A DNA stretch of 64,000 nucleotides from Escherichia coli (lineage in GTDB: Bacteria; Pseudomonadota; Gammaproteobacteria; Enterobacterales; Enterobacteriaceae): assembly GCF_044324785.1 (NCBI RefSeq), contig NZ_CP172127.1; one strand, written 5' to 3'. The translations under genes and the position numbers were made by a program. The notes under the pieces were generated by a model, which was not told where the DNA came from, made no database searches, and worked only from the letters and a program-made list of their open reading frames with translations. Shown in pieces: positions 5,534 to 9,301 of the stretch. The number at the start of each line of letters is the position of its first letter. The first letter of the stretch is position 1.

Positions 5534-5796
5534 AGCTTTCCTCGCAGAGTTGGCCCATTTCCGCAAACGCCAGAAAAATCAGCGCGACGGCCGCAAAAGG
5601 GGAGCGGGAATTGCAGGATGCAATCTCTGTAACAAGCGTAGCGGGTTTGCTTACACCCTCCGGTTAAGGAATGTACAATCAAACCAGTTGACGCCTGAAT
5701 TGGGCAGTTAATGACCTTTTTACCCTACCAGTGTTTAAATTTGTGATCAACTTCACATATGGATTTCGTTTAGGACTCATTGATGTAACTGATTAT

Positions 5797-6675
5797 TTAC
5801 ACCAAATTTACAGAGAAGATTTCCTCGACCATTGCCCCCGCCAGACGCTGCGCTGAACAGAGTCGTGGCATCCCCAGCGCGACAGTTTGCCAGCGTTGGG
5901 TCACTGACCAGCAAACGGGTTGTTTATCTGCCGTGGTCCACTTTCCCAGCCAACTTAAAAAATCAGCATGATCCCCGCCCGTCGGAACGGTCGAAGAGGC
6001 AAACCACTGATGGTAATAGTGACGCGTGGTCGGGGCCGCATTGATACTCTCTGCCAAATGTTGTGTCGCTTTCTCGCGCAAATCACCCAGCAACAACGCC
6101 ACCGCTTGCGGGCTTCCCAGACGGCAGGCATCGCCAAATGCCCCCCAGCGCAACTCCTCCAGAACGATAAAACAGCGCCCAGGCAACGACCAGGCGTTAT
6201 ACGCCCCAGCACGCCAGCGGGTAAAAATTTGCTCGCTCTGATCACCTGCCTGCACCAGTAGGCCTCGTTGCGTTAACGCCTTTTCCTTCCAGCGACAACG
6301 GGCTGAAAACCACTCATACAAGGCGGCAATTTGCTGGGGGAGCTCCGGGAAAGCAGAGTGCTGGCGGTGATCCATTTTTTGCAGCAGCGCCAGATGCTGC
6401 GCGATCTGCGTCAGTGCCAGATGACCGGGATCCAGCATCGACGCCAGTTTTTCCACCAATGTCAGACGCAGGCTAAGCGGCGCATTTAACATGCCGCCGT
6501 TCGTCCATGTCTGAAGCTGCACGCGCGCAAGAAGTTCCTGCATCAGTCGTTCACGAAACTGCTGCTGATGGGCTTGTGGAAGGCGGGCATCATCGCCCTG
6601 CGCCAAATCCACTAAAAAGCGGGGATAAACCGACTCCAGCACGCGACCGGGGCCGTCAAGTAACGTCTTGGTCAA
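5797..6675 (-). CDS. yjcZ: Uncharacterised protein YjcZ, cotranscribed with crfC
   Basis: 292-aa ORF, 4-bp start/stop overlap with upstream crfC. Confidence 0.8.
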   Translation of the reverse strand: MTKTLLDGPGRVLESVYPRFLVDLAQGDDARLPQAHQQQFRERLMQELLARVQLQTWTNGGMLNAPLSLRLTLVEKLASMLDPGHLALTQIAQHLALLQKMDHRQHSAFPELPQQIAALYEWFSARCRWKEKALTQRGLLVQAGDQSEQIFTRWRAGAYNAWSLPGRCFIVLEELRWGAFGDACRLGSPQAVALLLGDLREKATQHLAESINAAPTTRHYYHQWFASSTVPTGGDHADFLSWLGKWTTADKQPVCWSVTQRWQTVALGMPRLCSAQRLAGAMVEEIFSVNLV

Positions 6676-8900
6676 TATCGTTCTGCCGTGAAAAGTGTTT
6701 GAATATCATCGCGTAACAGCTGGGCGTCGGTGTAAATCCAGCCGTGAGTCATCACAGCCTGCTGCAATTGCTGCTGCATCAGCCTGACCACCGATTCATT
6801 TTGTTGACGCAGAGCCAGGCTTTCGCGTAAACGCGTCTGTAATTCCGTCAAACATGAAGCGAACTCAGCGAAAAAAGTATTCATGCCTGCCGTAACAGAT
6901 TCATCGACCTGCTCTGCCAGAACTTTAGCCATTTGTTGGCAATAAAGATCGACTTCTGCGCTTAATGCTCGTTGCAACACACTGTAATCAACCGTCTCTG
7001 TCGGGGATTTCTCATTTCCCCGTCCCCAGTCGGGCTGATTCAACCAGCGCGAAAAAGTCTCACGCACAACGCCTAAACGCGTGCTCTGCTCGTCCGTTGC
7101 TTCCTGGCGCGAAATGACTTCACTGAACAGCTGGCGAGTGTTGAAGTGGGGAACTACGCCGTGAAAAACAGGAAAATGAAACCCAGGACGAAACCCTGAC
7201 TCGCTCAATTCCATTTTGATTTGTTGCTCAATGGGGCGAATAACATCGGTTAACACCCGGCAAAGGGTGGATTCCAGCTCGGCAAAACGCAGCGTAAAGT
7301 CGCGACTGATGGTGTTCTGCGCCGTCTGTAACAGTGTCTCACAGCGGGTACGAATCTCGCTTAACGGCTCCGAATCATCCTGAAACAAGGCGGCTAACTG
7401 CGCATTCAGCGCATCTTGCTGTTGACGCAGAAAGTGGTTGGCGGAGGTCAGGGCCAGCTCGATTTCATGTTTAATCTCGCCGCTCACCTGCGCCTGATTG
7501 AGTTGCAATAGCTGCAAACTTTCTTCGATCTGATGGATATTTTGCCGCAATTGTTCACAAGCGACGTTTAACCCGTGCGCACGAAAATCCAGGTATTCCC
7601 GCGCCTGCTGCGCGTAATTCAACAGTTTATGCGCGGCAGATCGCAGAGCATACAACGAGGCGTTAGCGTAAGCGGCATGAAGCAACGCCTGAATTGGCTG
7701 GGCGAACAGCGAATCTTCCCACAACTGATCGGCAGCATGACGAATATGTTCGAGGTCCGCCAGATCGGCATGACGCCAGCGCCTGCCGAGCGCGGCATGG
7801 GCAAAATCTTCCACCCAGCGTTGTTGCTCTGGCGGTGGTAACTTACCGTTGTTGGCTAACTCATTGCGCGCCCGATTCGCCAGGTAGCCCCACATCGACG
7901 ACACCGGAAATATCTGCTGTGGCGTAATACAGCCTTTCATCAGCGTCCCGGAAATCAGTGCCCGCACCTGGTCGGCGTCGTCACTGTTACGATCCTGTTG
8001 ATCGAACTTATTGACCAGCACATACAGCGGCACCGATTGCCCCACCGCCAAAATCGCCTCACGGACCTCTTCATCGGAGATCGATTTCAGTTGCGTATAA
8101 TCCAGCACCGCCAGTACCGCCGAGGCGCGTGCCAGCTGCTGGTTAAGCATTTTTTGCAGATGCGGTTGCCCGGCTTCATTTGGCCCAGGGGTATCCAGTA
8201 ACGTCAACTGACCGGGATAACTCTCCAGCCCCGCCAGATGGACAAACTCCACTTCAATCACGGGAATATGCTCAATGGCGGCGTAAGCAGAAAAAGGAAA
8301 ATCGACGTCCAGCGCCTTCGCCAATCGCACCAAATCATTCAAACTTTTCAGACAATGAAAAATAGGCTGGGCACCCAGATAATATTTTTCGAAAGCGACG
8401 CCATTTTCGATCCGCTGCATAAGCGCACGCATATCTTTATCTATTTCCAGCACATCGGTCAGATGCTTAATATCGCAATCACGCAGGCGCTGTTGTAATT
8501 TTTGAATTAAACAATCGATTGGCGCGACATGTGAAAAATGCAGTACCGGTTCCTTTTGCCCGGGCGTATGGCGAATAAGTGTCGGCAGCGCAGTCATTGG
8601 GCGATTACGATTAGGCAAAACCTCCGTACCAACAATGGCATTAATGGTGGTTGATTTCCCTGCTTTCATGGTACCGACAATCGCCAGCACCATTTCCAGT
8701 CGGGAAATTTTACGCAACTCATTATTCAGCATCGCGTGACGTTCGGCGATATTAGGCTGACTCCAGGGTAAAGCCAGTTGTGGCGCATCGTCTCCGGGGA
8801 CAGAGAGAGGCATTTTTTCCAGTAACTGCAACTGTTGGCGAGAAAGCTGTAACAGGCGTTCAGCCTCCTGACTTAACTCATACAGGGTCTGTGTGTACAT
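6672..8900 (-). CDS. crfC: Dynamin-like GTPase CrfC (YjdA)
   Basis: 742 aa; P-loop GTMKAGKST near N-terminus, long coiled-coil C-terminal region. Confidence 0.85.
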   Translation of the reverse strand: MYTQTLYELSQEAERLLQLSRQQLQLLEKMPLSVPGDDAPQLALPWSQPNIAERHAMLNNELRKISRLEMVLAIVGTMKAGKSTTINAIVGTEVLPNRNRPMTALPTLIRHTPGQKEPVLHFSHVAPIDCLIQKLQQRLRDCDIKHLTDVLEIDKDMRALMQRIENGVAFEKYYLGAQPIFHCLKSLNDLVRLAKALDVDFPFSAYAAIEHIPVIEVEFVHLAGLESYPGQLTLLDTPGPNEAGQPHLQKMLNQQLARASAVLAVLDYTQLKSISDEEVREAILAVGQSVPLYVLVNKFDQQDRNSDDADQVRALISGTLMKGCITPQQIFPVSSMWGYLANRARNELANNGKLPPPEQQRWVEDFAHAALGRRWRHADLADLEHIRHAADQLWEDSLFAQPIQALLHAAYANASLYALRSAAHKLLNYAQQAREYLDFRAHGLNVACEQLRQNIHQIEESLQLLQLNQAQVSGEIKHEIELALTSANHFLRQQQDALNAQLAALFQDDSEPLSEIRTRCETLLQTAQNTISRDFTLRFAELESTLCRVLTDVIRPIEQQIKMELSESGFRPGFHFPVFHGVVPHFNTRQLFSEVISRQEATDEQSTRLGVVRETFSRWLNQPDWGRGNEKSPTETVDYSVLQRALSAEVDLYCQQMAKVLAEQVDESVTAGMNTFFAEFASCLTELQTRLRESLALRQQNESVVRLMQQQLQQAVMTHGWIYTDAQLLRDDIQTLFTAERY

Positions 8901-9223
8901 AAAAAATTCTTCCTTAAAGCAAATTTTGTTACTTTTATTTAGCCAGATTGTTTTTGAGTTCTGTTTTCGGCTTTTATAATTACTGCAAGAAATAATTTTA
9001 TATTTAGCGTGTTGTTTTTTATTAGAATAAATAACGTCTTCCGATACGTTTAAAACGTCAGAAAGATAAAAATATCATTTGAATTAAAAAAAGAACAAGT
9101 AGAGCATTAACCTTATCTTAAATAATAAATGGAGGCAAAAAGATTATTTTCTTTTTGCGTTTCCTTTCAAATGAAAACGATCGTCGTCTAAAATCAGCAG
9201 TACCCCCGACAAACTCAGGGATT

Positions 9224-9236
9224 TTGTGTATAATTG
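9224..9236 (+). promoter_or_regulatory. Extended -10 promoter element (TGTGTATAAT) for phnA
   Basis: ttttgtgtataattg about 65 bp upstream of the phnA ATG within an AT-rich divergent intergenic region. Confidence 0.45.
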
Positions 9237-9301
9237 CGGCCTTTTTCGGCAATCTGCCGTTTTTTGGCGCTTTTGCCCTGCTGACTTTTGAGGAAATCCA
9301 C

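Follow-up and report, generated by a model that had tools for sequence, protein, structure and literature searches.

In E. coli K-12, YjdA and YjcZ were identified by Pfiffer, Sarenko, Possling and Hengge (2019) as RdcA and RdcB, respectively (PMC6510439), and the crfC-rdcB pair and its DgcE role are therefore already known. RdcA is bound by RdcB, as shown by two-hybrid data, and RdcA in turn binds the membrane-embedded MASE1 domain of DgcE, the activation of which needs both RdcA and RdcB (PMC6510439). Mutants deleted for rdcA, rdcB or dgcE lost CsgD, curli, cellulose and c-di-GMP to the same extent, and the effects were not additive. The GTP-binding-deficient variant RdcA K82A was active, whereas the hydrolysis-deficient, GTP-locked variant RdcA T103D was inactive and no longer bound DgcE. 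Because of these two phenotypes, the authors regard RdcA without bound nucleotide as the form that activates and consider GTP inhibitory; the signal sensed could then be the drop in cellular GTP as cells enter stationary phase (PMC6510439). Genetics and two-hybrid assays are the basis of this GTP-sensing model. RdcB has been suggested in print to act on RdcA as either a GTPase-activating factor or a nucleotide-release factor. Independent confirmation came in 2026 from a genome-wide transposon screen with FRET-based sorting, in which mutants of dgcE, rdcA and rdcB emerged with low c-di-GMP (PMC13031359). A related cassette encoding a dynamin, an RdcB-like protein and a patatin was noted in 2026 in E. 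coli MP1 as a putative defence system (PMC12922286).

The crfC-rdcB locus and its proteins

The window, i.e. the whole 64-kb stretch of E. coli DNA that was analysed, contains a crfC-yjcZ pair (Table 1); the two gene identities had been proposed in the original prediction and were correct, with open reading frames exactly as given there. The RefSeq annotation of a 99.3%-identical genome has identical coordinates and an identical 4-nt overlap between the genes. Compared with annotated E. coli genomes the identity is 99%, and only a few residues distinguish this copy from other E. coli alleles. The order yjdM-crfC-rdcB...proP is syntenic throughout the Enterobacteriaceae, and in the window a 230-nt spacer separates rdcB from proP. 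The identity of the locus follows from its presence in 5416 of 5426 complete E. coli genomes, its RefSeq annotation (crfC and rdcB, the product of the latter being named 'diguanylate cyclase regulator RdcB family'), a CrfC match of 1595 bits to the NCBIfam equivalog NF007368 (cutoff 1146; residues 1–742 of 742 covered) and an RdcB match of 480 bits to Pfam YjcZ (PF13990; 2.5e-144; cutoff 27; residues 21–287). We conclude, with a probability of roughly 85%, that the window carries the core rdcA(crfC/yjdA)-rdcB(yjcZ) operon of E. coli, whose two products together form a GTP-state switch acting on the diguanylate cyclase DgcE. Here rdcB lies directly 3′ of, and overlaps, a CrfC-type GTPase gene, the arrangement expected of the RdcA/RdcB-DgcE system. 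The gene for the target of this system, the MASE1-PAS-GGDEF-EAL cyclase DgcE, is absent from the 64-kb window; in E. coli it is located far from the crfC-rdcB region. In Salmonella, DgcE may occur without rdcAB. The contribution of YjcZ had been called unclear, a statement that is outdated, as YjcZ is RdcB, the co-activator of DgcE together with RdcA (PMC6510439).

Table 1. Features of the crfC-rdcB locus, in positions of the window.
Feature	Position	Strand	Basis or remark
yjcZ / rdcB, 292-aa all-helical partner protein	5797..6675	-	ORF, TTG start; Pfam YjcZ PF13990
crfC / yjdA / rdcA, 742-aa dynamin-like GTPase	6672..8900	-	ORF, ATG start
Overlap TTGA (crfC TGA stop + rdcB TTG start)	6672..6675	-	Sequence
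Intragenic FliA (sigma-28) promoter inside crfC, drives rdcB	6900..6927	-	Exact match to published ChIP-seq motif TAAAGTTCTGGCAGAGCAGGTCGATGAA (PMC4183435)
C-terminal helical stalk, residues 414–741	6678..7661	-	AlphaFold2 secondary structure and pLDDT
Stalk tip, Trp-rich, low-confidence, residues 581–635	6996–7160	-	AlphaFold2 pLDDT
G domain, residues 69–350	7851..8696	-	Motif search
G4 NKFD, residues 297–300	8001–8012	-	Motif search
G3 DTPG, residues 236–239	8184–8195	-	Motif search
G2 T103	8592–8594	-	Motif search
P-loop (G1) GTMKAGKST, residues 76–84	8649–8675	-	Motif search
41-QLALP, published beta-clamp-binding motif of CrfC (PMC6374313)	8766..8780	-	Present at residues 41–45
crfC SD AAGGAAG	8909–8915		Sequence and SD energy
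crfC / yjdM divergent intergenic region, AT-rich	8901..9301	.	32% GC overall, 25% in 8901–9140

The earlier description of CrfC as a 742-aa dynamin-like protein with the P-loop GTMKAGKST was borne out. The large G domain with motifs G1–G4 places CrfC in the dynamin superfamily; Pfam Dynamin_N matched it at 2.7e-18, and an AlphaFold2 model (pLDDT 80) adopts a dynamin-superfamily fold. In this model the G domain is followed by a helical bundle (BSE/neck) and a long helical stalk. Extensive coiled coils had been described for the protein, and the model has five helices of 30–60 residues within residues 414–741. K82, T103 and G1–G3 are invariant in 30 homologues drawn from both the Enterobacteriaceae-type and the patatin-type loci described below, and G4 is nearly invariant (single conservative substitutions in 3 of the 30). 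The stalk tip contains a conserved WLNxPxWG motif, and from the model we infer that it takes the position of the membrane paddle of BDLPs; this Trp-rich tip would be a candidate contact for MASE1 and for the membrane. A paddle or TM segment at this site is typical of BDLPs but is no requirement for the dynamin superfamily. No hydrophobic segment was detected in either CrfC or YjcZ (Kyte-Doolittle 19-mer maximum 1.2), and for this reason both fit soluble proteins. RdcA has been reported to be soluble and was seen to interact with itself by two-hybrid analysis (PMC6510439), and GTPase activity and oligomers of CrfC were reported by Ozaki (2013), as relayed in PMC6510439 and PMC6374313. RdcB contains the core motif LEELRWGxFGD, in which L175, W177, G178 and G181 are invariant, and its AlphaFold2 model (pLDDT 75, pTM 0.79) is all alpha-helical, with no specific match among PDB folds. 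A YjcZ-like gene was not found in 50,697 phage records.

The stop/start overlap and the internal FliA promoter

On the coding strand, crfC ends with ...CGA TAT TGA and rdcB opens with TTG-ACC-AAG, four bases being shared; the 4-bp start/stop overlap described previously was thus confirmed as TTGA on the minus strand. Among the matches listed, junctions at 59 Enterobacteriaceae-type loci comprised 48 ATGA overlaps, four 1-nt overlaps and seven 2-nt gaps. At 20 patatin-type genome loci, likewise among the matches listed, there were 13 ATGA overlaps and five 1-nt overlaps; the remaining two junctions were a 1-nt gap and one that the junction script did not resolve. Judged by sequence comparison, the crfC-rdcB overlap exceeds chance. 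The rdcB start showed no SD pairing: its -2.8 kcal/mol is what random 22-mers give on average, compared with -6.1 kcal/mol for crfC. An overlapping stop/start combined with an absent SD for the downstream gene is the configuration expected of a coupled pair. Because rdcB has a TTG start and no SD, RdcB would be made from the bicistronic mRNA through termination-reinitiation at the TTGA overlap.

A published FliA promoter within crfC transcribes rdcB by itself (PMC4183435). Most Enterobacteriaceae genera retain the FliA pattern TAAAGCTT-N11-GTCGATGT at synonymous sites, and crfC of Cedecea and Mangrovibacter lacks it. Extra rdcB mRNA from this sigma-28 promoter would tie the supply of RdcB to the flagellar regulon. 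A different FliA promoter, once predicted in the crfC / yjdM intergenic region, was rejected by ChIP-seq (PMC4183435). Overexpression of SlyA raises crfC-yjcZ expression 2.6-fold (PMC5797941).

The internal promoter also suggests an alternative, in which the overlap is mere compact gene packing and translation of RdcB is independent, with the monocistronic FliA-driven mRNA as its main template. Such a model would account for yjcZ expression of 52 in the motile wild type versus 1 in a fliA deletion (PMC4183435), and the promoter inside crfC has been confirmed by a lacZ fusion and is conserved across genera. However, a TTG start without an SD is ill suited to de novo initiation, the overlap persists where the FliA motif is absent (Cedecea and all patatin-type cassettes), and the whole rdcA-rdcB operon on a plasmid under the tac promoter complements the deletion (PMC6510439); we consider independent translation doubtful. 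The translational coupling put forward in the original prediction is reasonable in that the overlap is kept in distant genera and the TTG start lacks an SD, but it is incomplete because the FliA promoter gives a separate rdcB transcript. On this rdcB-only transcript coupling to translation of full-length crfC is impossible, and a simple coupling model is therefore incomplete. The FliA transcript is predicted to start around 6892–6895, which would place its 5′ end ~10 nt ahead of an in-frame crfC codon, Met673. A 70-aa C-terminal CrfC peptide beginning at Met673 could keep the stop/start coupling to rdcB on the FliA transcript.

The locus is the signal-input module of the master diguanylate cyclase of E. 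coli, through which the GTP level and the flagellar regulon feed into the switch from motility to biofilm matrix. Its link to the motility/biofilm switch is established and needs no rediscovery.

Co-occurrence of YjcZ with CrfC and the clamp-binding motif

Co-occurrence of YjcZ with CrfC beyond close relatives had been set out as a test of the original prediction, and it was found throughout: among the matches listed, at 80 genome and 5 metagenome loci, a full-length CrfC-like gene ends at the YjcZ start wherever the upstream DNA suffices. The genome loci represent 80 of 119 confirmed matches from a scan built on 31 YjcZ sequences that keep EELRWG, taken from a 79-sequence alignment, and are biased towards this motif. 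From these gene arrangements, the CrfC-YjcZ partnership appears to be obligate.

A role for CrfC at the replication fork, which had also been put forward for this protein, does exist in the literature, but it rests on the 41-QLALP clamp motif, which is not conserved outside E. coli. The present copy carries the motif; the nearest other Escherichia orthologue has PLTLP at this site, Q41 and QLALP are absent from that orthologue and from all other genera examined, and the motif does not define the wider family. It could be proposed that the main job of the protein lies in chromosome biology, with CrfC oligomers binding the beta-clamp via 41-QLALP to hold sister replication forks together and YjcZ being incidental. 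Studies of CrfC summarised in PMC6374313 found anucleate cells both on deletion of crfC and in Q41A mutants, in line with a function in nucleoid partition, and the NCBI name for the NF007368 family is 'clamp-binding protein CrfC'. Against this proposal, the G domain and the partnership with YjcZ are invariant but the motif is not conserved, and neither the constant co-encoding of YjcZ nor the place of the pair in the flagellar regulon is explained. Pfiffer et al. further point out that the replication experiments relied on plasmid-expressed proteins, that clamp binding is GTP-independent and that growth is unaffected (PMC6510439). We regard clamp binding as unlikely to be the main function. 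The clamp and DgcE roles are not mutually exclusive, and moonlighting has been proposed (PMC6510439).

Patatin cassettes and comparison with known systems

Outside the Enterobacteriaceae core locus, the CrfC-YjcZ pair was always accompanied, among the matches listed, by a third, overlapping gene for a patatin phospholipase. This cassette is present in 2606 of 5426 E. coli genomes (~48%), on islands and IncF plasmids, and it occurs in Pseudomonas, Allochromatium, Pantoea, Erwinia and Budvicia, being widespread in Gamma- and Betaproteobacteria. Its neighbours in Pseudomonas, Allochromatium and Pantoea vary (an AraC regulator, an ABC exporter, Uma2, Fic, HD-GYP, a YfjJ-like protein and DUF6079), which fits a mobile cassette and is not decisive for defence. 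A literature search for defence systems combining dynamin and patatin found nothing beyond PMC12922286. The locus in the window does not belong to this three-gene class, as no patatin homologue is present anywhere in the window. A degraded third gene was also sought between rdcB and proP. This gap is 230 nt in E. coli; in Enterobacter it is 1.7 kb and contains a convergent gene for a 331-aa membrane protein, presumably resembling a KdgT-type permease, and no patatin remnant.

Membrane remodelling or a phage response had been hinted at for the core pair, which would make it comparable to LeoABC/Eleos or to DynA of Bacillus, and the suggestion received no support. CrfC does have a dynamin-superfamily fold and weak PADLOC matches (LeoBC, 6.3e-06; LeoA, 1.7e-05), and the paralogous dynamin-YjcZ-patatin cassette on genomic islands and plasmids has been called a putative defence system (PMC12922286). 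However, the Leo matches are partial and reach 22–24 bits, YjcZ matches no defence model, and the locus is thus not a member of Eleos/LeoABC. Moreover, the core pair lies in a conserved gene order on the chromosome of nearly every E. coli rather than on an island, no effector gene was found 3′ of it in the neighbourhoods compared, and neither a TM segment nor a hydrophobic paddle was detected, RdcA being reported as soluble; the knock-out phenotypes are fully explained through DgcE (PMC6510439). A membrane-remodelling or anti-phage function of the core pair is highly improbable, and the idea may better fit the mobile paralogous cassette. With PADLOC, the GTPases gave weak Leo matches, the patatin gave weak matches to CBASS-type phospholipases and YjcZ gave none.

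One tentative scenario is that the GTPase and YjcZ form a portable nucleotide-state switch whose ancestral client was the patatin phospholipase. The cassette might then be a GTP- or infection-triggered membrane attack system of the abortive-infection type. Core rdcAB of the Enterobacteriaceae would be a domesticated offshoot in which the lipase was lost, the MASE1 domain of DgcE became the new client and expression came under sigma-28. That the same two-protein module is wired to a phospholipase in a mobile cassette of about half of E. coli strains suggests a general design of a dynamin-like switch plus a client enzyme.

In comparison with known systems, the patatin cassette resembles the core operon in its full-length CrfC-like GTPase with G1–G4 kept (30–43% identity; alignment A5), its YjcZ-family protein (25–33% identity) and the same ATGA overlap, and differs in the third overlapping gene (patatin PF01734, 351–423 aa) and in being accessory and mobile. 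Eleos/LeoABC (Millman et al, 2022, as cited in PMC12922286) likewise encodes a dynamin-family GTPase with a partner; unlike that defence island, crfC-rdcB is a core gene pair, and no PADLOC model, Leo or otherwise, matches YjcZ. Identity of CrfC to Nostoc BDLP (2j68), SynDLP (7zw6), IniA (6j72), Campylobacter DLP1/DLP2 (5owv) and LeoA (4aur) is 13–18%. In contrast to these characterised bacterial dynamin-like proteins, neither a TM segment nor a hydrophobic paddle was detected in CrfC; according to the literature RdcA is soluble and targets a protein (MASE1 of DgcE) rather than remodelling a bilayer, and its partner is a non-dynamin helical protein, whereas in DLP1/2 or LeoBC the partner is a second dynamin-like protein. 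The sister-fork colocalisation factor CrfC, as described by Ozaki et al (2013) and summarised in PMC6374313, is the same protein under another name, with 41-QLALP present here; the function proposed for it is different, and the motif is confined to E. coli, in contrast to the much wider conservation of the remaining sequence and of YjcZ. From the RdcA/RdcB system of E. coli K-12 this copy has no substantive difference: the genes are the same (742 and 292 aa), K82 and T103 are present, and the operon order and the flanking genes proP and yjdM are shared.

The crfC-rdcB pair and its published function

Two minus-strand ORFs fill the interval 5797-8900 exactly, confirming the predicted pair of adjoining genes with a 4-bp start/stop overlap. 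On the coding strand the junction reads CGA TAT TGA, and the rdcB TTG start takes its first T from the end of the crfC Tyr codon and its TG from the crfC stop codon; the four shared bases are therefore TTGA rather than the more usual ATGA. The predicted dynamin-like identity of the larger product was borne out by Pfam (Dynamin_N, 2.7e-18) and NCBIfam (CrfC equivalog, 1595 bits against a cutoff of 1146), and the P-loop GTMKAGKST (residues 76-84) together with T103, DTPG236 and NKFD297 completes the G1-G4 set. The smaller product matches YjcZ (PF13990; 2.5e-144, 480 bits). By megablast, 5416 of the 5426 complete E. coli genomes carry this 3.1-kb stretch (95-99% identity), annotated as crfC and rdcB with the same 4-nt overlap and flanked by proP and yjdM; the window derives from an E. 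coli chromosome. Among database entries for E. coli, rare ones (P0001, P0020-P0022 and P0140) are fused or truncated CrfC-YjcZ products of 438-672 aa that carry both PF00350 and PF13990, presumably deletion or frameshift alleles joining both reading frames.

Features of the crfC-rdcB region
Feature	Coordinates	Strand	Description
crfC ORF	6672-8900	minus	742 aa, ATG start
41-QLALP motif	8766-8780	minus	clamp-binding motif, basis of the name CrfC; present in the window copy
FliA (sigma-28) promoter in crfC	6900-6927	minus	exact match to the published 28-mer, 224 nt upstream of the rdcB start
In-frame Met673 codon of crfC	6882-6884		
rdcB ORF	5797-6675	minus	292 aa, TTG start
rdcB start codon	6673-6675	minus	
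crfC/yjdM intergenic region	8901-9301		very AT-rich, 25-32% GC; 25% GC in 8901-9140
rdcB-proP spacer	5567-5796		230 nt

The original prediction regarded the contribution of YjcZ as unclear, but the role is published. [quoted passage not shown] According to that study, strains lacking rdcA or rdcB show the same phenotype as a dgcE deletion in macrocolony matrix, CsgD, csgB::lacZ and c-di-GMP, and the effects are non-additive. By two-hybrid assay, RdcA binds itself, RdcB and the DgcE MASE1 domain; RdcB interacts with neither DgcE nor another RdcB. The K82A variant of RdcA, which does not bind GTP, is functional, whereas T103D, which does not hydrolyse it, is inactive and has lost DgcE binding. 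The authors concluded that RdcA activates in its nucleotide-free form and is inhibited by GTP, with the fall in GTP in stationary phase as the likely signal, and they suggested that RdcB may act as a GTPase-activating or nucleotide-release factor (PMC6510439). A 2026 genome-wide FRET-sorting screen again recovered dgcE, rdcA and rdcB as low-c-di-GMP mutants (PMC13031359). In the same screen ynjH, another FliA target, which lies outside the window, was strongly associated with the RdcA/RdcB system. The gene identities in the original prediction are right, and its central 'unknown' is answered in print.

Co-occurrence of YjcZ and CrfC-like genes

A word-indexed search returned only 230 YjcZ clusters, the top matches all being Enterobacteriaceae, whereas 261, many of them full-length and distant, came from a profile search run exhaustively over 1.84 billion representatives. 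Gene neighbourhoods were surveyed by tblastn and ORF logic in 80 genome loci, out of 119 confirmed hits, found with YjcZ sequences keeping EELRWG and biased towards that motif, plus several metagenome contigs. Wherever enough upstream DNA was available, a full-length CrfC-like gene ended at the YjcZ start. Among the 59 loci of the Enterobacteriaceae type with a resolvable upstream gene, the junction was ATGA in 48, a 1-nt overlap in four and a 2-nt gap in seven; for the 20 such genome loci of the patatin type the counts were 13 ATGA, five 1-nt overlaps and two others (a 1-nt gap and one unresolved junction). The prospect that YjcZ would be found without CrfC outside close relatives was therefore not realized, and the partnership is obligate and old. 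This co-occurrence strengthens the published RdcA/RdcB model. There was one exception (L089, 5001-7630), in which a 532-aa DUF3944-YjcZ fusion is followed by an overlapping patatin gene and no dynamin gene lies upstream. Here parE/parC occupy the expected dynamin position, and this is the only YjcZ homologue observed lacking a CrfC-like neighbour.

The survey contained two locus types. Type I is the syntenic yjdM-crfC-rdcB...proP arrangement of Enterobacteriaceae, without a third gene. In type II the YjcZ stop is always overlapped or abutted by a gene for a patatin-like phospholipase (PF01734, 351-423 aa); this type has representatives in Pseudomonas, Allochromatium, Thiodictyon, Burkholderiales, Pantoea, Erwinia, Budvicia, Pontibacterium, Methyloprofundus and E. 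albertii. Loci L007-L026 and L080 are of this type, with three genes overlapping stop to start. The type II cassette is mobile: 2606 of the 5426 complete E. coli genomes contain it, it lies in a tRNA-Ile-proximal island of E. coli O103:H2 (L087, 9004-13369) between a YeeP-like GTPase gene and DUF932, antirestriction, RadC and CbtA genes, and IncF plasmids of E. coli, Klebsiella and Enterobacter carry it flanked by IS elements (e.g. an IncFIB plasmid, L088, 3697-8068). It was absent from the window and from PADLOC v2, and was not found in phage genomes. In a midpoint-rooted neighbour-joining GTPase tree, built without bootstrap or outgroup, type I forms a single clade nested within the diversity of type II, with the Budvicia type II protein as its sister; this nesting suggests that type I may have arisen by lipase loss.

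In E. coli proP directly follows rdcB, whereas Enterobacter and most other genera have ~1.7 kb between the two, with a convergent gene for a 331-aa membrane protein (L043, 8880-9875) that is absent from E. coli and may encode a KdgT-type permease.

The literature contains one mention of the type II cassette, from 2026: in a Kapi1 lysogen no genes were induced more strongly than the 'dynamin, RdcB-family, phospholipase' operons of E. coli MP1, and the authors consider them a putative defence system (PMC12922286).

Expression of rdcB

The rdcB start is TTG in E. coli and ATG in every other genus examined. Pairing of the upstream 22 nt with the anti-Shine-Dalgarno sequence (-2.8 kcal/mol) was no better than for random sequence, compared with -6.1 for crfC. 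The TTG start, the lack of Shine-Dalgarno pairing and the conserved overlap support production of RdcB by termination-reinitiation coupling.

Coupling is only part of the picture, because a FliA site inside yjdA drives yjcZ. This site was mapped by Fitzgerald et al (2014; PMC4183435), who rejected an older predicted FliA promoter upstream of yjdA, and its promoter activity was confirmed in a follow-up study. Most Enterobacteriaceae genera, among them Enterobacter, Kosakonia, Citrobacter, Leclercia, Lelliottia and Phytobacter, retain the element TAAAGCTT-N11-GTCGATGT at synonymous positions of the codons; within loci L034-L086 it was missing from those of Cedecea and Mangrovibacter and from Siccibacter-like loci. 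DNA-level conservation is also unusually high over the next 30 nt downstream, which include the in-frame Met673 codon. The predicted transcript start lies ~10 nt upstream of Met673 and, speculatively, a short C-terminal CrfC peptide initiated there may preserve coupling to rdcB.

The crfC/yjdM intergenic region, where the crfC promoter would lie, contains several sigma-70-like matches. Strain MEW carries an IS1 in this spacer (L001, 9258-9955) that is absent from the window. The operon is up 2.6-fold on SlyA overexpression (PMC5797941).

Clamp-binding motif and predicted structure

The replication-fork role mentioned in the original prediction is likewise published, and depends on the clamp-binding motif 41-QLALP (PMC6374313). 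Among aligned orthologues only those of E. coli have QLALP: the nearest orthologue from another Escherichia species reads PLTLP, without Q41, and all other genera have V(L/H)PLH at this position, likewise lacking Q41 and the motif. The G domain is invariant in the same alignments. This pattern fits the 'moonlighting' view of Pfiffer et al. As context for the RdcB mechanism, several features may prove useful: the mobile paralogue with its lipase gene, the sigma-28 promoter conserved inside crfC and, specific to E. coli, the TTG start and the clamp motif.

An AlphaFold2 model of RdcA, built on a 30-sequence alignment (pLDDT 80, pTM 0.71), comprises the G domain, then five long helices spanning residues 414-741, with a low-confidence tip at residues 581-635. 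The orthologues of other Enterobacteriaceae (779-785 aa) have three segments (8, 32 and 2 aa) that Escherichia CrfC lacks, at residues ~34, ~519 and ~629; the 32-aa gap is in the stalk helices. No hydrophobic 19-mer was found in RdcA or RdcB (Kyte-Doolittle maximum 1.2), in agreement with the reported solubility. The best PDB matches by Foldseek were all dynamin-superfamily proteins aligned over roughly full length, led by IniA (E 2e-12) and Nostoc BDLP (E 7e-12), with Campylobacter DLP1/2 and LeoA ranking lower. The CrfC stalk tip bears a conserved Trp-rich motif, WLNxPxWG, at what would be the place of the membrane paddle in BDLPs, suggesting that this tip could be the MASE1- and membrane-facing surface.
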